The translations under genes were made by a program, and so were the position numbers. A stretch of 64,000 bases of DNA. It comes from Burkholderiales bacterium. Its GTDB lineage: Bacteria > Pseudomonadota > Gammaproteobacteria > Burkholderiales > SG8-39. Below, in pieces: positions 15,688 to 32,329 of this stretch. Below the pieces are notes generated by a model. The model was not told the DNA's origin. It was given only the letters and a program-made list of their open reading frames with translations, and searched no databases. The stretch lies in NCBI GenBank assembly GCA_026417035.1, contig JAOAEA010000003.1, forward strand, positions 44,980 through 108,979, written 5' to 3'. Numbering within the stretch: position 1 is the stretch's first letter; every line of letters starts with the position of its first letter.

Positions 15688-17802
15688 TCAGAACGCCCCC
15701 CGCACGCCAACGATAACCGCCCGCGCGCCCGCCGGGGCGATCTCTTTCAGGAACGAGGTGGTGTAGCGGATGCTCTCGTTGAGGAGGTTCGTCCCGCGCA
15801 CGAAGGCTTCCCAGCCAGCGCCGAGGGCGCGCAGCTTGTAGCCGACCGCGGCGTTGACGAGGGTGTAGCCATCGGTCGGCTGCTCGCCCGGCGCGACGTC
15901 GTGCTGGTCCGCCGCCCAGAGCACGTCGGCGCGGGCGTAGAGGTCGCCCGCGGTGTAGACGACCGCGCCGCCGACCCTGAGCGGCGGGATGCGCGGAAGG
16001 AAGCTGCCGTTCGAGCGGTCCGTCGCGCGCACGTAGTCGGCCCGCAGCTCGAGATCGACGGCGCGCCCGCGCTGCGACCAGAGCGCGGCGCGTGCGCTCG
16101 CCTCGAGGCCTTGGAACGTGGCGGGGACCGGGACGAAGGCATATTGCGGAATCGGGCTCGCGAGCGTCGCGGGATCGGTCGTCGCCGGCACGCTCCGGTC
16201 GTCGAGGTCCCGGTAGAGCGGCTGCCCGGTCGCGGGATCGACCGAGGGCGTGAGGGCGATGAAGTCGGTGAAGCGGTTGTAGAACCAGCCGAGGTAGCCG
16301 GTGAATCGGCCGGCGGTCTTGCGCAGCCCGACGTCGAAGGCGAGCGACTTCTCCACGTCGAGCGACCGGTCGCCGATCTCGAACGCGTTGGTCGCGAGAT
16401 GCGGGCCGTTGGCGTAGAGCTCCTGGCCGGTCGGCGCGCGCTCGGTATACGAGACGTTGCCCGAGAGCGCGTATTCCTTCGCCAGCGTCCAGACGGCGCC
16501 GAGCGCGGCGCTCCAGGGCGTGAAGCGGCGCGAGTCCGCCGGGAGCCCGGCCTGCGCGAACGCCTGCGCGTCCACGCTCACGGTCGCGAGCCGCGCCCCC
16601 GCCGAGAGCTTGACCGGCCCGAGGGCGGTCTCCTCGTAGACGAAGCCCGCGAGCTGCGTCGTCTTCGTCGATGGCAGGAACGCCTCGTCGCCGAGGGCGG
16701 AGAGGTCGGCGTCCGTGAACTGCACGCCGAGCGCACCCGTGAACCCGCCGAGCGGCTCGTGCAGGAGCTCGGCGCGGCCGTCCCAGCCGCGGCTCTTGAA
16801 CGTCGTGCCGACGACGCCGTTCTCGGTCTCCTGGTGCTGATAGTCCGTGTAGCCGACCTTCCACTTGAGCGCGCGCACCATGCCGCCCGGATCGCGCAGC
16901 TCGCCCGCGAAGTCGAAGCGGTTCATGTCGAGCCGGATGCGGACGTTCTCGTCGGCGGGCGTGCCGTAGCGGCTCGAGTAGTTCGAATACGCCGCTCCTA
17001 CGTAGCCGTTGGCGAGGATCGCCGAGCCGGCGACGGCCCCGCCATCCCAGTTGCCGTTGCTGTTGGGCAGGCGCCCCGAGGGTCCGGGGGCACCGAGCAC
17101 CGACTGCGCATAGGGCGTCCAGGCCTCCCCGGGGATCCTCAGGTCGTCCGATTTGCGTGCGAACCCGTCGGCGTGCAGCACGAAGCGGTCGTTGCCGACG
17201 TCGACGCGCGCGGCACCAGCGCGCTCGTTCGCCACGGAGTCGTAGCGGAGGTCGGCCGCGCCGGTCGCCGGCCTCGGAAGACCCTCCTGGGCGATGCGTC
17301 CATCGGTGACGTTCACGACGCCGCCGACGGCGTTCCCGCCGTACATCACCGCGGCGGGGCCGCGCACGATCTCGACTCGGTCCATGAGGAGGGGCTCGAG
17401 CGCGACGGCGTGGTCCGGGCTGATCGAGGAGGCGTCGAGGACGCTCGCGCCGTTCTGCAACACCACGATCCGGTCCTCGCCCAGGCCGCGGATGATGGGC
17501 CGGCTCGCGTTCGGCCCGAAATAGGTCGAGGTGACGCCCACTTCCTCATTGAGCGTTTCGCCGAGCGTCGGCTGGATCCTGCGCCGCAGGGCCGGTCCCG
17601 ACAGCACGGTCGCCGGATTCGCGAGCTCGAAGAGGTTGGAGCCGATCGGATTCGCAGTCACGACGACGGGCGCGAGCGGCTCCGGGCCCGCGCTCGCCGC
17701 GGGCGGCTGCTGCTGCGAACCCGCGCCAGCGCCTTGCGCGTGGGCGACGGAAGCGCACGCCGAGGCGACGGCGAGCGCAAGCGGGTAAACACGAAGCTCC
17801 AT
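15688..17802 (-). CDS. TonB-dependent receptor, copper-receptor (OprC/NosA)-like
   Basis: Start reassigned to the ATG at 17802 (MELRVYPLALAVASACASVAHA, signal peptide). It has a plug domain (VVVTANP...IVRGPAAVMYGGNAVGGVVNV) and a C-terminal aromatic residue (GVRGAF). The copper assignment rests on the DUF2946/PCuAC context. Confidence 0.88.
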   Translation of the reverse strand: MELRVYPLALAVASACASVAHAQGAGAGSQQQPPAASAGPEPLAPVVVTANPIGSNLFELANPATVLSGPALRRRIQPTLGETLNEEVGVTSTYFGPNASRPIIRGLGEDRIVVLQNGASVLDASSISPDHAVALEPLLMDRVEIVRGPAAVMYGGNAVGGVVNVTDGRIAQEGLPRPATGAADLRYDSVANERAGAARVDVGNDRFVLHADGFARKSDDLRIPGEAWTPYAQSVLGAPGPSGRLPNSNGNWDGGAVAGSAILANGYVGAAYSNYSSRYGTPADENVRIRLDMNRFDFAGELRDPGGMVRALKWKVGYTDYQHQETENGVVGTTFKSRGWDGRAELLHEPLGGFTGALGVQFTDADLSALGDEAFLPSTKTTQLAGFVYEETALGPVKLSAGARLATVSVDAQAFAQAGLPADSRRFTPWSAALGAVWTLAKEYALSGNVSYTERAPTGQELYANGPHLATNAFEIGDRSLDVEKSLAFDVGLRKTAGRFTGYLGWFYNRFTDFIALTPSVDPATGQPLYRDLDDRSVPATTDPATLASPIPQYAFVPVPATFQGLEASARAALWSQRGRAVDLELRADYVRATDRSNGSFLPRIPPLRVGGAVVYTAGDLYARADVLWAADQHDVAPGEQPTDGYTLVNAAVGYKLRALGAGWEAFVRGTNLLNESIRYTTSFLKEIAPAGARAVIVGVRGAF

Positions 17803-17894
17803 CGATGATCTCCTGAGCGAACCCGCGGCGCGCCTGCGGCGCGGCGGGCGGAAGAAGCTGAAGTCGCGCCGGGGGTGCGGCGCGTCCGGGAGGC

Positions 17895-18203
17895 TCAGGA
17901 GAGCGGCGGCGGTGCGCGACCCGAGTAAGGCGGGGGCTCGCTCGCGGCGACGAGGGTGCCGCCGTGCGCGGAGAAGCAAGGTGCAGCAGGCGCGGGTGCA
18001 CATCGCGCGCCGGCGGCCGGGGCATCCGCAGTGTCGGCGCCGGCGAACGCGTGGCAGACATCGCAATGCGATGACTGCGGCGCGTGGCCCTTCGCCGGGT
18101 CGCCCGCCTGATCGCCGAAGTGCGAGAGCGCGTGCGCGAACGCGCCCGCCTGCGCGAGGACGAGCGCGACCGCGAAAAGGATGTTGGAGACGACGCGCCG
18201 CAC
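17895..18203 (-). CDS. DUF2946 family protein, second paralog, leader gene of the receptor operon
   Basis: 102 aa with an N-terminal TM/signal region and an HCDVCH motif. It lies directly upstream of the TonB-dependent receptor. Confidence 0.65.
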   Translation of the reverse strand: MRRVVSNILFAVALVLAQAGAFAHALSHFGDQAGDPAKGHAPQSSHCDVCHAFAGADTADAPAAGARCAPAPAAPCFSAHGGTLVAASEPPPYSGRAPPPLS

Positions 18204-18585
18204 CGTGACGGGATGCCTGATGGGCGGGATCCGGGGACGACGCCGGCCCGCGCGCAGAGTCTAGCAAAGCGCCGCGAACGTGCCCGGGAGGCTGCGTGCG
18301 CCACTCGATGCCGAATCGGGAACCTGGACGGCTTCTCGTTGGCCATCCCGTGCTCGCGGCCGCGTGGGTCCGCGCGCGCCGCACGTGGACACGGGGGCAC
18401 GGCGCCGCGCGGCTCGAGGCGGCTCAGTGAGCGTTCGCGTCGGTGCAAAATTTTTATGGGCCGATTGGGACTGTCTATTCTTTCCCCACCGCCAACCAAT
18501 CTCGCCGCACGATCGGCGATTCCGATCGGCCGAGCGCGCGCGGCGGCCGCGCTCGCTGCGGCGCCGCATTGCCATGAACATGCTT

Positions 18586-18661: not shown

Positions 18662-19918
18662 ATGCCAGAAGATCGCAAGCCCGGCTTCGAAGGCACGCGA
18701 CGTCGATTCCTCGAGCGGATCGGCGCGGGCAGCGCCCTCGCGCTCGCCGGCGCCGCGGGTCTGCCACGCGAGGCGCTCGCGCAAGCGCCCGCGCCGCAGC
18801 CCGAGCCGCAGGTGCCCGGCACGATCGCGAACGCCAGCGTGCTCGCCGGGAAGGACATGAGCGTCTTCCAGGTCCATTCCGAGCGGCCGCTCACCGGCAG
18901 CGTTCCGGCCGATGCGCAGGATTTCGACGTCACCCCGAGCGACCGGATGTTCGTGCGCAACAACCTGCTCACGCCCGACATCGATGCCGCGACGGCGAGG
19001 CTGCGCGTGGTGGGGCTCGTGGACAAGCCGCTCGACTTCGGCGTCGAGGAGCTCAAGAAGGCCTTCCCGGCCGTCACGATGCAGGGGATGGTCGAATGCG
19101 CGGGCGCGGGCCGCACCGCATTCCAGCCGGTGCCCCGCGGCACGCCGTGGTCGCCGACCGGCGGGATGGGCTGCCCGAAGTGGACCGGCGTGCGGCTGCG
19201 CGACGTGCTGAACGCGGCCGGGCTCAAGGCGAACGCGGCGCACGTCGCGGGACAAGGCGGCGACCCGGGCGCGGTCCCGACCGCCGCGCCGGTGATCCGC
19301 TCCATCCCGCTCGCGAAGGCGATGGACGAGCACACGCTGATCGCCTGGGCCATGAACGACGCGCCGCTGCCCAAGATCCACGGGTATCCGCTGCGCCTCG
19401 TGGTGCCCGGCTGGGTCGGCTCCGCGTCCACGAAGTGGTTGCACACGCTCACCCTGCTCGACGCGCCCTTCAAGGGCACGTTCATGGACGATAGCTACCG
19501 CGTGCCCAAGTTCCCGGTCGCGCCGGGCGAGAAGATGCCGGCGGACACGCTCTACACCGAGGCATGGCCGATCAAGTCCATGATCACCTCGCCCGCGCCG
19601 AACGCGCGGCTGCCGGGCAATCGCCGCATCGTCGTGCGCGGCAAGGCCTGGGTGGGCGAGGGCCGCGTCGCGCGCGTGGAGATCTCCACCGACGAGGGGG
19701 TCACCTGGCAGCGGGCGAGCCTGGGGCGGCAGGGTGACAAGTACGCCTGGCGCACGTTCACCTTCGAGTACGAGCCCCAGCGGCTCGGCTACATGACCTT
19801 CCTCGCGCGCGCCTGGGACGACCGGGACAACGCGCAGCCGATCGTGTCGGCGTGGAACCCGCTCGGTTATTTCTGGAACGGGGTGCACCGTGTCGGCATC
19901 GTCGTCGTTCCGGCGTAG
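18662..19918 (+). CDS. sorA: sulfite dehydrogenase/oxidase-family molybdopterin subunit (SorA-like), Tat-exported
   Basis: 418 aa. It has a twin-arginine signal (TRRRFLERIGAGSALALAG), a Moco-binding core with the conserved Cys (MVECAGAGRT) and a dimerisation domain. A strong SD (ggaggag) precedes the start. Confidence 0.88.
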   Translation: MPEDRKPGFEGTRRRFLERIGAGSALALAGAAGLPREALAQAPAPQPEPQVPGTIANASVLAGKDMSVFQVHSERPLTGSVPADAQDFDVTPSDRMFVRNNLLTPDIDAATARLRVVGLVDKPLDFGVEELKKAFPAVTMQGMVECAGAGRTAFQPVPRGTPWSPTGGMGCPKWTGVRLRDVLNAAGLKANAAHVAGQGGDPGAVPTAAPVIRSIPLAKAMDEHTLIAWAMNDAPLPKIHGYPLRLVVPGWVGSASTKWLHTLTLLDAPFKGTFMDDSYRVPKFPVAPGEKMPADTLYTEAWPIKSMITSPAPNARLPGNRRIVVRGKAWVGEGRVARVEISTDEGVTWQRASLGRQGDKYAWRTFTFEYEPQRLGYMTFLARAWDDRDNAQPIVSAWNPLGYFWNGVHRVGIVVVPA

Positions 19919-20501
19919 GGCGGCGCTCGCCGCAGGAACGTTCGCCGCCGCGACGGCCCTGGGCGCCGCCGCGGCGAGCGCGCTCGTCTCCGGGCCCGGC
20001 GTCGCGCTGGTGAACGCCAAGTGCGGCACGTGCCACGACGTCACGCACATCACGCGCTCGAAGCTCACGCAGGACGAGTGGACCGACAACCTGCGCAACA
20101 TGATCCAGCGCGGGATGCCGCCGCCCACCGACGACGAGCGCGCGATCATCATCGAGTACCTCGTCGCCTACTACGGACCGAAGCCGCCGCCGCCGGCCGC
20201 GCCCGACACCTACGCCGATCGCGTCGCGGGGCTGGGCGGGCTCGGGGGTGACGATCCTGGGGCGAAGCTGGTCGGCGAGGCGGGCTGCATCGCCTGCCAC
20301 AAGCTCGACGAAGCGTTCGTCGGCCCCTCGTTCAAGGCGATCGCGGCGCGCTACCGCGGCGACAGCGGCGCCCCGGCGCGCCTGGCGCAGAAGGTCCGGC
20401 AGGGCGGCGCCGGCGTGTGGGGACCGACCCCGATGCCGCCGCAGAACCTCACCGACGCCGAGCTGAAGCCCCTCGTGGACTGGGTGCTCGCCCAGAAGTG
20501 A
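19890..20501 (+). CDS. di-haem cytochrome c (SorB-like N-terminal haem domain + c551/c552-like C-terminal domain)
   Basis: 203 aa with a GTG start that overlaps sorA by 29 nt, and a signal peptide. Two CxxCH motifs are present (CGTCH, CIACH), and the second domain carries GVWGPTPMPPQ. Confidence 0.85.
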   Translation: MSASSSFRRRAALAAGTFAAATALGAAAASALVSGPGVALVNAKCGTCHDVTHITRSKLTQDEWTDNLRNMIQRGMPPPTDDERAIIIEYLVAYYGPKPPPPAAPDTYADRVAGLGGLGGDDPGAKLVGEAGCIACHKLDEAFVGPSFKAIAARYRGDSGAPARLAQKVRQGGAGVWGPTPMPPQNLTDAELKPLVDWVLAQK

Positions 20502-20649
20502 TCGGGCGACGTGCCGCGCCGGCCTGCCCGGCTGGCGTCTCGCTCGCGGCCCGCAAGAACGCCGCAGGAGCCGAGAGGCTGCGCTTGCCGCCGCACGGAA
20601 CGGGCGGCGGGAGCAGCACGGCGCGCAAGTAGCGCGCTCGCCGGGGAAA

Positions 20650-20681
20650 GGGCACGCCGGCACGGCGCTCGAGGCGTGCCC
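20650..20681. terminator. GC-rich hairpin between the convergent cytochrome c and dksA2-like genes
   Basis: gggcacgcc (20650-20658) pairs with ggcgtgccc (20673-20681). The U-tract is weak and present only on the minus strand (ctttcccc). Confidence 0.35.
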
Positions 20682-20695
20682 ACCGCGCGTCGGCT

Positions 20696-21547
20696 TCAGT
20701 CGCCGTACATCTTCTGCTTGAGCTCGCGCCGCGCCTGCGCCTCGACCGAGAGCGTCGCGGTCGGGCGCGCGAGGAGCCGTTGCAATCCGATCGGCTCACC
20801 GGTCTCCTCGCACCACCCGTAGGAGCCGTCCTCGATGCGCCGCAGCGCCTGGTCCACCTTCTTCATGAGCTTGCGCTCGCGATCGCGGGTGCGCAGCTCG
20901 AGGGCGTGCTCCTCCTCGATCGTGGCGCGGTCGGCAGGGTCGGGCACGACCTCGTTCTCGCGCAGGTGCTCGGACGTGACGCCGGCGTTCTGTTCCAGCT
21001 CCCGCTTCATGTCGAGGAGCATCGCCTTGAAGAACGCGAGCTGGGCCTCGTTCATGTAGGCATCGGGAGGCATCGCGAGCAGCGCGCTCTCGGTGAGGTC
21101 GCCGAAGCGCAGGTCGGCCCGCGGCGTGGCGGACTGGGCCGGGCGCGGCGCAGGCGGCGGCGCCGCCGCGGCGCGTGCCGGGGCGACCGCCGGCGTGGGG
21201 GCGCGCGGCGGCGCCGGCGGAGGCGCGACGGGCGCAGGCCTGACGGGCGCCGGCACGACGCCGGAGGGGGTCGGCTGCGGCGGCGGCACCGCCTTGAGGG
21301 CCGGTTTCGCCGCGGGCGCGGGTTTCGGGGCCGCGGGCTTCGCCGGCGGCGGTTTCACGGCCGCAGGCTTCGCAGTCGCGGCGCGCTTGGGCGCGGCGGG
21401 CTTCGCCGCCGCCGCGGGCTTGCGCGCCGCGGGCTTCGCCGGCTTCACCGGCTTCGCGGCCTTCCTCGGCGCGGGCCTCGCGCTACTCTTCGCGGGCTTC
21501 GCGGCTGCCCGGGCGGGCGTCTTCTTCACTGCGGTCTGGCGAGGCAT
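20696..21547 (-). CDS. dksA2: DksA2-like RNA polymerase-binding protein (Cys-depleted zinc-finger region) with Lys/Ala/Pro-rich N-terminal extension
   Basis: The C-terminal ~145 aa align with DksA (YMNEAQLAFFKAMLLDMKRELEQ...LRTRDRERKLMKKVDQALRRIEDGSYGWCEETGEPIGLQRLLARPTATLSVEAQ). The four Zn-finger Cys positions read C,T,S,A. The in-frame upstream sequence MPRQTAVKKTPARAAAKPAKSS...KPAAPKPAPAAKP runs from the ATG at 21547. That start overlaps the COG0523 gene end by 22 nt and is uncertain. Confidence 0.8.
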   Translation of the reverse strand: MPRQTAVKKTPARAAAKPAKSSARPAPRKAAKPVKPAKPAARKPAAAAKPAAPKRAATAKPAAVKPPPAKPAAPKPAPAAKPALKAVPPPQPTPSGVVPAPVRPAPVAPPPAPPRAPTPAVAPARAAAAPPPAPRPAQSATPRADLRFGDLTESALLAMPPDAYMNEAQLAFFKAMLLDMKRELEQNAGVTSEHLRENEVVPDPADRATIEEEHALELRTRDRERKLMKKVDQALRRIEDGSYGWCEETGEPIGLQRLLARPTATLSVEAQARRELKQKMYGD

Positions 21548-22515
21548 TGCTCGAGTCCTTGCACGAAAAGGTCTTCGGGAAGATTCCGGCCGATGAAGAC
21601 GAGCACGCTCTCGCGCTTCTCGTCCGGGCTCCAGGGCTTGCCGAGGTCGCCGCCCATGAGCATGTGCACGCCCTGGAAGACCACCCGGTGCGGGTTGTCC
21701 CGCAGGTGGAGGACACCCTTGTAGCGCAGCATGTCCTGGCCGTAGACCTGGATCATGCCGGAGAGGAATTCCTCGAGCTTCGCGCCCTCGAACGGGCGCT
21801 CGGAGCGGAACACGAACGAATGCACCGCGTCGTCGTGCGCGTGCGCGTCCTCGGCGAGGAAGTCCGGATCGAGCTCGAGGATCGCGTTCAGGTTGAAGCC
21901 GCGGACGTCGAGGATGTCGGCGATCGGCGCCGCGCCGAAGTGCACCGCCTTCACCGGCGCACGCGGGTTGATGCGCGCGAGCCGGTGCCGCAGCGACGCG
22001 ACGGCGTGCTCGGTGACGAGGTCGGTCTTGGAGATGAGGATCCGGTCGGCGAAACCCACCTGCTCCTGCGCCTCGCGAAACTCGTCGAGCTGCCGCTCGC
22101 CGTGCTTCGCGTCCACGACGGTCACGATCGCGTCGAGGAGGTAGTACTCGCCGATCGACTCGTCCATGAAGAAGGTCTGCGCCACCGGGCCGGGATCGGC
22201 CATGCCGGTCGTCTCGATGATGACGCGGTCGAACCGGAGCGCGCCCGCGGCTCGCTTCGCCTTGAGCTCGCCGAGGATGCGCACCAGGTCGCCGCGGACG
22301 GTGCAGCAGATGCAGCCGTTGTTCATCTCGACGATCTGCTCGTCGCGGTCCTGCAACAGGATCTCGTTGTCGACGCCGGCCTCGCCGTACTCGTTCTCGA
22401 TCACCGCGATCCGCTCGCCGTGGTTTTCGCGGAGGATGCGGTTGAGCAGCGTCGTCTTGCCCGCGCCGAGAAAGCCGGTGAGGATCGTCACCGGGACCAT
22501 GCCGTCGTCTGCCAT
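21526..22515 (-). CDS. COG0523/CobW-family metallochaperone GTPase
   Basis: Start reassigned to the ATG at 22515 (MADDGMVPVTILTGFLGAGKTTLLNRIL, Walker A). It has the CxCC motif (GCICCT) and a His-rich linker (DAHAHDDAVH). Confidence 0.9.
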   Translation of the reverse strand: MADDGMVPVTILTGFLGAGKTTLLNRILRENHGERIAVIENEYGEAGVDNEILLQDRDEQIVEMNNGCICCTVRGDLVRILGELKAKRAAGALRFDRVIIETTGMADPGPVAQTFFMDESIGEYYLLDAIVTVVDAKHGERQLDEFREAQEQVGFADRILISKTDLVTEHAVASLRHRLARINPRAPVKAVHFGAAPIADILDVRGFNLNAILELDPDFLAEDAHAHDDAVHSFVFRSERPFEGAKLEEFLSGMIQVYGQDMLRYKGVLHLRDNPHRVVFQGVHMLMGGDLGKPWSPDEKRESVLVFIGRNLPEDLFVQGLEQCLARPQ

Positions 22516-22632
22516 GACCTCGTTGCGCCCGCGGCGCGCGAGCCTCCCGCGCCCGGGCCTCTCTGAAAAGGGAATCGGCCCCGGCCCCGTGTCCCGCACG
22601 GGCCCCACGGGGCCGTCTGTTCAAGGCGCGCG

Positions 22633-22661
22633 ATTGTAGTCGCGGCAGAAGGGCAGGGCAA
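22633..22661 (-). promoter_or_regulatory. sigma-70-type promoter for the COG0523-dksA2 operon with an overlapping small inverted repeat
   Basis: The minus strand reads TTGCCC-N17-TACAAT. The inverted repeat GCGAT-tgta-GTCGC (22630-22643) overlaps the -10. Confidence 0.5.
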
Positions 22662-22688
22662 CCCCGCCCGGCCCGGCGCCGGCCGGCC

Positions 22689-23891
22689 TCACAATTTCTT
22701 GAGAATCAGTCCCTTGAGATACTCGCCCTCGGGGAAGGCGAGCATCACCGGATGGTCGGGCGCCGCGGCGAGTCGCGCCAACAGCTGCGCCTCGGCCCCC
22801 GCGTCGACCGCAGCGCTGGCGACGATCTTCTGGAAGAGGTCGGCGGTGACGCCGCCGGAGCAAGAGAACGTGACGAGCAGGCCGCCGGGCCGCAGTAAGC
22901 GGAAAGCGAGCAGGTTGATGTCCTTGTAGGCGCGCGCGGCGCGCGCCGCATGCGCGGCCGTGGGCGCGAACTTGGGCGGGTCGAGCACCACCAGGTCGAA
23001 GGTGCGGCCCGCGTCGCGCAGCCCGCGCAGGTGCGCGAAGACGTCGGCCTCGGCCCATTCGGCGCGCGAGGCGTCGAGCGCGTTCAGCGCGAGGTTCTCG
23101 CGCGCGAGGGCGAGCGCGGCGGCGGAGCTGTCGAGCGACAGGACCGATCGCGCGCCGCCGGCGAGCGCGGCGAGCGAGAAGCCGCCGGTGTAGCAGAACG
23201 CGTTGAGGACGTCGCAGCCGCGGGCGAGCGCGCGGACCCGCGCCCGGTTGTCGCGCTGGTCGAGATAGAAGCCGGTCTTCTGGCCGTGGGCGACGTCGAC
23301 GCGGTAGCGGATGCCGTGCTCGACGATCTCGGCCATTGCGCCGGCGAGCGTGCCGCGGATCGCCCCGGTGCGCGGCGCGAGCCCCTCGATCTCGCGCACC
23401 TCGGCGTCGGAGCGCTCGTAGATGCCGGCGCAGCCGGTTTCGGCCGCGAGCGCATCCGCGATCGCGTCGCGCCAGCGCTCGGCGCCCGCGGAGGTGAGCT
23501 GGAGCACGACGACGTCGGCGTAGCGGTCGGCCACCACGCCGGGCAGGCCATCGGCTTCGCCGTGCACGAGGCGGCAGGCCGGGAGCGCCGCGGCATCGAG
23601 GAGCGCACGCCGGCGCGCGATGGCCGCGCGCACCCGTTCGTGGAAGAACGCAGCATCGATCGCGCGCGTCGGCTCACGCGTCCACAGCCGCACGCGGATC
23701 TGCGAGCGCGGGCTATAGGCGCCGAGGCCCAGCACTTCACCGGCCGCGGTGGCGACGCGCACCGTTTCGCCGGACGCCGGTTCACCCGCGACGCGCCCGA
23801 CCGCCCCCGAGAACACCCAAGGGTGCCCGCGGAGCACCGAGCGTTCCCGCTCGGCGTTCAGGATGACCGCCGGCGGCCCCGCGGCCTCCAC
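22689..23891 (-). CDS. rlmI: 23S rRNA m5C methyltransferase RlmI-like (PUA + class I SAM methyltransferase)
   Basis: It carries SVLRGHPWVFSGAV, ACRLVHGEADGLPGVVADRY, HGQKTGFYLDQRDNR and LDPPKF. No ATG is available, so I chose the GTG at 23891. The start is uncertain. Confidence 0.82.
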   Translation of the reverse strand: MEAAGPPAVILNAERERSVLRGHPWVFSGAVGRVAGEPASGETVRVATAAGEVLGLGAYSPRSQIRVRLWTREPTRAIDAAFFHERVRAAIARRRALLDAAALPACRLVHGEADGLPGVVADRYADVVVLQLTSAGAERWRDAIADALAAETGCAGIYERSDAEVREIEGLAPRTGAIRGTLAGAMAEIVEHGIRYRVDVAHGQKTGFYLDQRDNRARVRALARGCDVLNAFCYTGGFSLAALAGGARSVLSLDSSAAALALARENLALNALDASRAEWAEADVFAHLRGLRDAGRTFDLVVLDPPKFAPTAAHAARAARAYKDINLLAFRLLRPGGLLVTFSCSGGVTADLFQKIVASAAVDAGAEAQLLARLAAAPDHPVMLAFPEGEYLKGLILKKL

Positions 23892-30710: not shown

Positions 30711-30716
30711 CCCCTC

Positions 30717-30780
30717 CCGCTGAGGAGCGCTGCGACCCGCGGGGGCCAGGCTCAGCATGGAATCAACGGCGCTCGCATCG
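30717..30780 (+). promoter_or_regulatory. SAH (S-adenosylhomocysteine) riboswitch
   Basis: ccgcuGAGGAGCGCUGCGACCCGCGGGGGCCAGGCUCAGcauggaaucAACGGCGCUCgc matches the SAH-element core as I remember it (GAGGAGCGCUGC ... AGGCUC ... AACGGCGCUC). It sits upstream of ahcY, the classic context. Confidence 0.8.
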
Positions 30781-30806
30781 GAAACGGTGCGGGCGCTTTT
30801 TCTTTC
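30769..30806 (+). terminator. riboswitch expression-platform intrinsic terminator
   Basis: A 12-bp stem pairs 30769-30780 with 30785-30796 (two G-U pairs). It has a GAAA tetraloop (30781-30784) and is followed by UUUUUCUUUC. The 5' arm overlaps the conserved GGCGCUC of the aptamer. Confidence 0.7.
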
Positions 30807-30916
30807 TGCCCCTGCCGAGGGGCGCTGCAGCCGGCGCGATCTCGCCCGGCGAGGCTCGGCAGGCGTGCGGACCTTCGGTCCAACGGCGCCCGTCGCACGT
30901 CGAAGGAAGTACGACC

Positions 30917-32329
<1,413 letters not shown>

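Follow-up and report, generated by a model that had tools for sequence, protein, structure and literature searches.

A long polycationic, disordered N-terminal tail on a zinc-independent DksA of Burkholderiales

The dksA gene considered here lies on the minus strand of a 64,000-nucleotide stretch of DNA (the window) from a Burkholderiales bacterium (GenBank assembly GCA_026417035.1, contig JAOAEA010000003.1, positions 44,980 to 108,979), where it occupies positions 20696..21547, or 283 codons plus a stop. On the evidence of its translation and architecture, we are highly confident that the gene product is one 283-amino-acid, zinc-independent DksA of the Burkholderiales type, bearing a disordered tail at its N terminus. 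The finding is real and widespread, though other genomes share it and it has a precedent. By analogy with better-known basic domains, and with moderate confidence in the chain of steps as a whole, we favor a role for the tail as a non-specific tether that would concentrate DksA on the nucleoid near RNA polymerase.

The minus-strand open reading frame (ORF) runs from an ATG at 21545-21547 to a stop codon at 20696-20698, and its product falls into three parts: a polycationic segment rich in lysine, alanine, and proline (K/A/P-rich; residues 1-85, 21293..21547), a Pro/Ala-rich linker (residues 86-143, 21119..21292; 23 P, 16 A, 5 R, and no K), and the DksA core (residues ~144-283 and the stop codon, 20696..21118). 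The core was recognized by sequence matches to the solved structures 4IJJ and 1TJL and by Foldseek, and ~145 residues stand N-terminal to the portion that can be aligned with ordinary DksA proteins. Pfam identified DksA_N (PF21157) at residues 169-238 (E = 1.5e-26, 92.8 bits vs. a cut-off of 27) and zf-dskA_traR (PF01258) at residues 241-275 (47.1 vs. a cut-off of 24.9), and the NCBIfam DksA equivalog TIGR02420 was matched at 144.3 bits, above its cut-off of 115.5. The original prediction, made from the DNA sequence, had been of a stop-free, in-frame extension joined to DksA; translation from 21547 to 20696 gave a product identical to the predicted peptide. AlphaFold2 assigned no secondary structure to residues 1-147, with a predicted local distance difference test (pLDDT) score of 46-60 (46-58 in the polycationic segment, 49-60 in the linker), vs. 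83-93 in the core, where helices were predicted at residues 167-196 and 204-240 and a C-terminal helix at 267-281.

Whether the tail is translated at all was the first matter to be weighed. An open frame is weak evidence on its own in such DNA, because 3 of the 6 frames across 21130-21547 are stop-free and a 139-codon stop-free run has a chance of ~9% at the local base composition; the comparative data decide. That open frames come cheaply at a guanine-plus-cytosine (GC) content of 73% is also a point in favor of a downstream start, at M159 or an internal GTG, in which case the 420 nucleotides would be an untranslated, repeat-rich leader or a 3' region of the transcript of the upstream GTPase gene. 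In-frame GTG codons are indeed present at residues 7, 34, 64, 87, and 98, the one at residue 34 being preceded by a weaker AGGA, and three transcription start sites have been listed for dksA itself in Cupriavidus metallidurans (PMC13492112). Such a start is nonetheless very improbable given the remaining evidence, the first part of which comes from the window itself. The GC content of third codon positions (GC3) was 0.913 in residues 1-150, 0.933 in the core, and 0.936 in the upstream GTPase gene; by codon position, the GC content of the tail was 0.79/0.77/0.91, a pattern that fits the long frame. Lysine was encoded in residues 1-150 by AAG 14 times and by AAA 3 times, and an AAGGA motif stands at 21556-21560, with a spacer of 8 nucleotides before the ATG at 21547. 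Predicted beforehand from the sequence, the AAG preference, the gene-like third positions, and the AAGGA motif were all borne out. Of the in-frame starts that precede residue 160, only the ATG at 21547 has a Shine-Dalgarno motif of the AAGGA type. M159, the alternative start that had been suggested, is unlikely, as it has no Shine-Dalgarno motif and would cut off conserved core residues (RFGDLTESALLAM). A scan of 20400-22800 for sigma-70-like consensus sites found no promoter-like site inside the extension.

The second and decisive part comes from close relatives. The closest genome (L001, a Burkholderiales metagenome-assembled genome [MAG] with 90% core identity to the window) aligned to the tail with six gaps of 6, 9, 12, 21, 51, and 18 nucleotides, each a multiple of 3. 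Substitution patterns were taken from codon alignments of four close relatives. Between L001 and a second relative, L081, differences in the tail were distributed 15/11/46 by codon position, and 33 codons had changed synonymously and 21 non-synonymously; the corresponding values for the core were 2/2/46, with 43 synonymous vs. 5 non-synonymous codons, so that constraint was tighter in the core than in the tail. Among the three closest relatives of the window, synonymous codons in the tail were at least as numerous as non-synonymous ones, the reverse being true in comparisons with the window itself. The closest relatives all open with MPRQTAVKK, with the start position conserved, and the long product is also what the gene calls of JGI and NCBI report for them. 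Orthologues were also checked, as had been proposed with the original prediction: the in-frame extension was kept, its length was variable, and indels preserved the frame in the closest relative. Together, GC3, frame-keeping indels, third-position bias, and the conserved start show the tail to be part of the protein. The long form is therefore the correct annotation, a record cut back to the DksA core would be wrong, and the start-codon question for dksA is settled in favor of the long form. Two plus-strand ORFs in the same region (20780-21724 and 21093-21596), one of which runs antisense over the DksA core, were rejected as shadow ORFs of a high-GC gene; their high GC3 lends them no support, because an antisense frame inherits it by construction.

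The tail is of extreme composition. Residues 1-85 comprise 17 K, 6 R, 31 A, and 20 P with zero D or E, for a net charge of +23, and K, A, and P together make up 80% of this segment. The net charge of the tail is +28, again with no acidic residues, vs. an acidic core of net charge -7. No second K/A/P-rich stretch was found in any frame of the window. Repeats are loose, with 5 KPAA, 9 KPA, and 11 KP in the polycationic segment, and Tandem Repeats Finder reported DNA periods of 15, 33, and 42 nucleotides at 68-79% match. The linker is longer in the window protein than in its closest relatives.

How common such tails are was estimated by homology. A first search with the full protein returned ~100 tailed proteins among the best 120 matches, with K/A/P-rich extensions of 83-265 amino acids; most matches were unnamed or labeled DksA/DnaK suppressor by their sources, and public annotation already names long forms DksA. 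Because a full-protein query favors tailed hits, the survey was redone with the core alone over species-representative genomes, and 82 loci picked by core similarity alone were analyzed. Extension lengths were called with a start-codon heuristic that errs at some loci (at L074, for example, the frame is open for 220 codons and the first ATG gives 48), and the resulting counts are approximate: extensions of at least 80 amino acids at 40 of the 82 loci, of 40-79 amino acids at 5, and of <40 amino acids at 37. The best 80 core-matched loci were nearly all labeled Burkholderiales or member genera, among them Cupriavidus, Ralstonia, Herbaspirillum, Collimonas, Noviherbaspirillum, Massilia, Comamonas, Variovorax, Rhodoferax, Sutterella, and Pusillimonas, with a few carrying other MAG labels. 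Cultured genera with long tails were Collimonas, Noviherbaspirillum, Rhodoferax, and Cupriavidus. In a library of clusters at 50% identity, 59 of 95 complete-core representatives had tails of at least 80 amino acids, a count inflated by the splitting of clusters by variable tails; these reached 322 amino acids and a net charge of +79.

Variation on this scale is one of several observations consistent with the view that the tail, though translated, is a largely neutral low-complexity expansion produced by replication slippage in GC-rich DNA and does no more than aid solubility or act as an entropic spacer. Tail length ranges from 0 to >300 amino acids among close relatives, with 37 of 82 loci nearly tailless; tail sequence is poorly conserved; the imperfect DNA repeats, with periods of 9 to 42 nucleotides, are typical of slippage; and the content of A, P, S, and T follows genomic GC. 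Across the tails of the 82-locus survey, A, P, and R rose with GC while K and S/T fell, and Oxalobacteraceae tails were of K/T/S/A type vs. K/A/P in high-GC lineages. Neutral expansion is nevertheless unlikely in our judgment, as other properties of the tails run counter to it. All tails of at least 80 amino acids in that survey were net positive (+4 to +57, median +19.5), with acidic residues nearly absent, and tail length was independent of GC (rho = 0.00). The genome has a GC content of 72%, which favors Arg codons, yet the tail prefers Lys: K:R was 17:6 in residues 1-85, whereas the core and the GTPase together gave 17:39 (Fisher p = 0.0009). The excess or parity of synonymous codons among the three closest relatives, reversed only against the window itself, also argues against neutrality, as do conserved islands within the tails of several clades. 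With charge and disorder kept while length and sequence are free, the tails look like a selected polyanion-binding disordered region.

The islands are short stretches of conserved sequence in tails of other clades. One, DPKDVAAAHEYLLSRSASRSE..VNG+RL, marks a single group; a second, RPSSRLAQLTVPSMAQSVASTAAKASY...KLANNWKTK, occurs in Comamonadaceae tails, and a third, EKPVVSKVSEVATKTTK, in Oxalobacteraceae tails. The sets with islands were P0024-type proteins, L022, and L049; L030, L053, L063, L074, and L075; and L005, L014, L015, L029, and L073. These islands may be short linear binding motifs.

The core to which the tail is joined was compared with known DksA proteins. The coiled-coil tip, DPADRA, preserves the DxxDxA motif as D203, D206, and A208, invariant in 26 aligned relatives. 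In the E. coli numbering, which we take to be D71, D74, A76, R91, K98, and R129, all six equivalents were invariant in the 26-sequence alignment, and the last three, contacts of guanosine tetraphosphate (ppGpp) site 2, correspond to R223, K230, and R261. The four zinc-ligand positions are occupied by C246, T249, S267, and A270, and a C4 finger is not present; C-T-[ST]-A was found at these positions in all 80 of the best Burkholderiales loci. DksA homologues that lack a zinc finger are known to act as DksA does (PMC9239242), so loss of the finger does not exclude DksA function here. The best solved relative was Pseudomonas aeruginosa DksA2 (4IJJ; E = 1.4e-32, 49% identity, Foldseek template modeling score TM(target) 0.83), with E. 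coli DksA a close second (1TJL, E = 8.8e-30; 5VSW, a polymerase complex, TM(target) 0.76). The globular domain was near-identical to that of DksA2 (YGWCEETGEPIGLQRLLARPTATL), and the coiled-coil tip was E. coli-like (PDPADRA).

Upstream of dksA and on the same strand lies a COG0523 (CobW/YjiA-like) GTPase gene (21526..22515; Pfam cobW E = 1.7e-57, CobW_C E = 2.5e-25), and a homologue of this GTPase was found directly upstream of dksA at ~74 of 80 Burkholderiales loci, regardless of tail length. The two genes overlap by 22 nucleotides (21526..21547, minus strand), from the GTPase stop codon, TGA at 21526-21528, to the dksA start codon, an overlap that L001, L081, L082, and L083 share. This overlap suggests translational coupling of the GTPase and dksA, and the genes are probably co-transcribed. 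Codons 1-7 of dksA (MPRQTAV) are thereby dual-coding with the 3' codons of the GTPase gene (…EQCLARPQ*, 21526-21547), which may explain why, within this clade, no other part of the tail is as well conserved as the extreme N terminus. Ahead of the GTPase gene, a sigma-70-like promoter match (TTGCCC-17-TACAAT, 22633..22661, minus strand; a consensus match only) was the one such match in 20400-22800, vs. 0.0 expected in shuffles. The leader that separates this site (22661-22633) from the start of the GTPase gene at 22515 holds a GC-rich inverted repeat, perfect over 10 bp (CGGCCCCGTG/CACGGGGCCG; 22576-22615, minus strand), for which nested alternatives exist and which had no Rfam match.

The GTPase neighbor bears on whether the protein should be called DksA2-like, as it had been. 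The pairing of DksA2 with COG0523 proteins has been described in the literature, where DksA2 is a zinc-independent paralogue in Zur-controlled zinc homeostasis. The label is apt in that the zinc site is lost, 4IJJ is the best relative, and a COG0523 GTPase adjoins; it does not by itself imply the role of a Zur-controlled backup paralogue. Upstream of the GTPase gene, where no validated betaproteobacterial Zur matrix was applied, only GC-rich inverted repeats and no AT-rich Zur-box-like palindrome were seen, and no second dksA/traR copy was found in the 64-kb window. In C. metallidurans, DksA is not regulated on induction of the Zur-controlled cobW1 operon. With the same core and cobW neighbor in nearly all sampled Burkholderiales, a housekeeping context, and the TIGR02420 match, the core looks like the standard DksA of Burkholderiales rather than clearly a zinc-starvation backup. 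From these comparisons of gene content, the pairing of a DksA2-like protein with a metallochaperone-type GTPase seems to be general in Burkholderiales as a whole.

In the mechanism we propose, the dksA product would be initiated at the ATG at 21547, probably on an mRNA shared with the COG0523 GTPase, and its core would act as DksA, inserting its coiled coil into the secondary channel of RNA polymerase and placing the DxxDxA tip near the active site. Secondary-channel binding is taken as the activity of the core because zinc-less homologues work and the functional tip is kept. In E. coli complexes (5VSW, 7KHI), the N-terminal part of DksA belongs to a globular domain outside the channel; a tail attached there would stick out from the surface of the polymerase, where nucleic acid would be within its reach. 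The tail would then bind polyanions non-specifically, DNA being the leading candidate by analogy with the streptomycete protein DdbA, the KPAA domains of AlgP and PhaF, and the C-terminal domain of histone H1. As an outcome, DksA could be held on the nucleoid and its local concentration or dwell time at the polymerase raised. Both the binding of polyanions or DNA and any effect on DksA activity are inferred from these analogues.

A related possibility is that the tail binds another polyanion, such as polyphosphate (polyP) granules, nascent RNA or ribosomes, or the surfaces of polyhydroxybutyrate (PHB) granules, with DksA sequestered or released according to starvation state. The tail, acid-free and of net charge +28, would suit such targets. 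The KPAA domain of AlgP puts that protein on polyP granules and is required for granule spacing, and PhaF bears a homologous domain on polyhydroxyalkanoate (PHA) granules (PMC9239181); in the betaproteobacterium Herbaspirillum, an H1-like protein with an HC2 domain is the second most abundant PHB-granule protein (PMC3783465). On the other hand, the same charge pattern binds DNA in each tested analogue, including KPAA peptides and the AlgP C-terminal domain (PMC9239181), and no polyP or PHB genes adjoin dksA in the window. Since DNA is bound in all tested analogues, the two options are not exclusive; a primary target other than DNA seems to us a minority possibility, if somewhat less doubtful than neutral expansion. 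As to polyP, DksA reportedly regulates its accumulation in E. coli.

Several observations weigh against a DNA tether that modulates DksA. When the tail alone was compared with Pfam at E <= 10, zero families were matched, H1, HC2, and AlgP included, so that membership in these families cannot be claimed and the likeness is one of composition. Of the original description as a histone-H1/AlgP-like KPAA repeat, what survives is a K/A/P-dominated, acid-free, predicted disordered tail, and what needs correcting is any likeness to the regular array of AlgP, the stretch being repeat-like but irregular and without a curated family match. Tails in Cupriavidus and Ralstonia are weakly basic (+8 to +16) and S/T/E-rich, and DNA binding may accordingly not be general. 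With tails of <40 amino acids at ~45% of loci (37 of 82), the tail must be dispensable for basic DksA function, and a minor shorter isoform from an internal start is possible. The residue equivalent to what we take to be the ppGpp contact K139 of E. coli DksA is Q271, and coupling to ppGpp may therefore differ. Finally, the literature searched contained no study of a Burkholderiales or other betaproteobacterial DksA tail; what it yielded on such tails was limited to DdbA, AlgP, and brief references to DksA of C. metallidurans.

The wider neighborhood of dksA was also compared with that of relatives. Farther upstream of the GTPase gene are rlmI-like, xerC, DUF484, and dapF genes, as in L081 and L082, which amounts to a housekeeping context. 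At the 3' end of dksA, genes for a sulfite-oxidase-like molybdopterin oxidoreductase and a cytochrome c (sorAB-like, 18662-20501, plus strand) converge on it, and a TonB-dependent receptor gene is next (15688-18384, minus strand); in L081 and L082 this side instead carries a small ORF and, after it, a TonB-dependent receptor gene and tonB. An Rfam search of the whole window found nothing near the dksA locus and only two S-adenosylhomocysteine (SAH) riboswitches ~9 kb off. These are tandem aptamers on the plus strand (30716-30781 and 30811-30898; 50.5 and 48.3 bits, gathering score 37), directly upstream of a plus-strand ORF of 470 amino acids (30917-32329).

The usual picture of DksA is of a small factor that diffuses freely and whose abundance is roughly constant. 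If many Burkholderiales tether it through a tail of +20 to +79, the access of DksA to polymerase could hinge on the state of the nucleoid or of polyP, and tethering could also alter its competition with Gre factors for the secondary channel. A broader scenario would join these elements: Burkholderiales replaced an ancestral zinc-finger DksA by a zinc-independent, DksA2-like protein traveling with a COG0523 GTPase, then repeatedly gained polycationic tails, and thereby rendered a stringent-response cofactor nucleoid- or polyP-bound, with its availability to polymerase set by nucleoid compaction or polyP levels. We offer this scenario as speculation and think it improbable as a whole; if true, starvation physiology would be linked to the secondary channel by a route parallel to ppGpp.

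With E. coli DksA (1TJL, 5VSW) the window protein shares the DxxDxA tip, the equivalents of R91, K98, and R129, and the C-terminal helix, at 44-45% core identity; the E. coli protein differs in its C4 zinc finger and in K139, where the window protein has Gln, and lacks both a polycationic tail and a COG0523 link. P. aeruginosa DksA2 (PA5536, 4IJJ) has likewise lost the C4 site and is near-identical in the globular stretch YGWC[EQ]ETGEPIGL.RLL.RPTATL. It differs in being without a tail (a 136-residue chain), in keeping two cysteines (CxxT...CxxA) where the window protein has one (CxxT...SxxA), and in a coiled-coil tip of SDEADLA rather than PDPADRA. The KPAA domains of AlgP and PhaF and the C-terminal domain of histone H1 resemble the tail in being K/A/P-dominated and disordered, with a basic residue every 3-6 positions, and among domains of such composition they are the ones whose binding of polyanions (DNA, polyP) has experimental support. 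Those domains are C-terminal, and that of AlgP is regular, with 25 perfect KPAA repeats, whereas the window tail is N-terminal, irregular, followed by an uncharged Pro/Ala spacer, and without detectable homology to AlgP, PhaF, or H1.

The closest parallel in layout is DdbA (SCO2075) of Streptomyces coelicolor, in which an H1-like, basic N-domain likewise precedes a DksA-like domain (Aldridge et al. 2013, PMC3643593). Its N-domain binds DNA and condenses plasmid DNA in vitro, and its authors propose a coupling of nucleoid state to transcription (PMC3643593). The suggestion that a fusion of this sort was uncharacterized is thus true of Burkholderiales, for which no study was found, and not in general, DdbA having been described and tested (PMC3643593). 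DdbA is an actinobacterial protein and a distant relative of DksA (BLASTP E = 8e-11 to E. coli DksA) that keeps its C4 finger, and its tail is built of [ST][AT]AKK pentapeptides, none of which are evident in the window tail with its KPAA and AKP motifs; the window core, in contrast, is a proteobacterial TIGR02420 DksA with a C-T-S-A finger, and there is no orthology to the streptomycete protein. The N-half of DdbA was called specific to streptomycetes by its authors (PMC3643593), which makes the Burkholderiales tail an independent acquisition. The Burkholderiales tails are thus an independent, convergent DdbA-like case on a bona fide proteobacterial DksA orthologue, and the parallel suggests that an H1-like tail on a secondary-channel factor is a recurrent solution.

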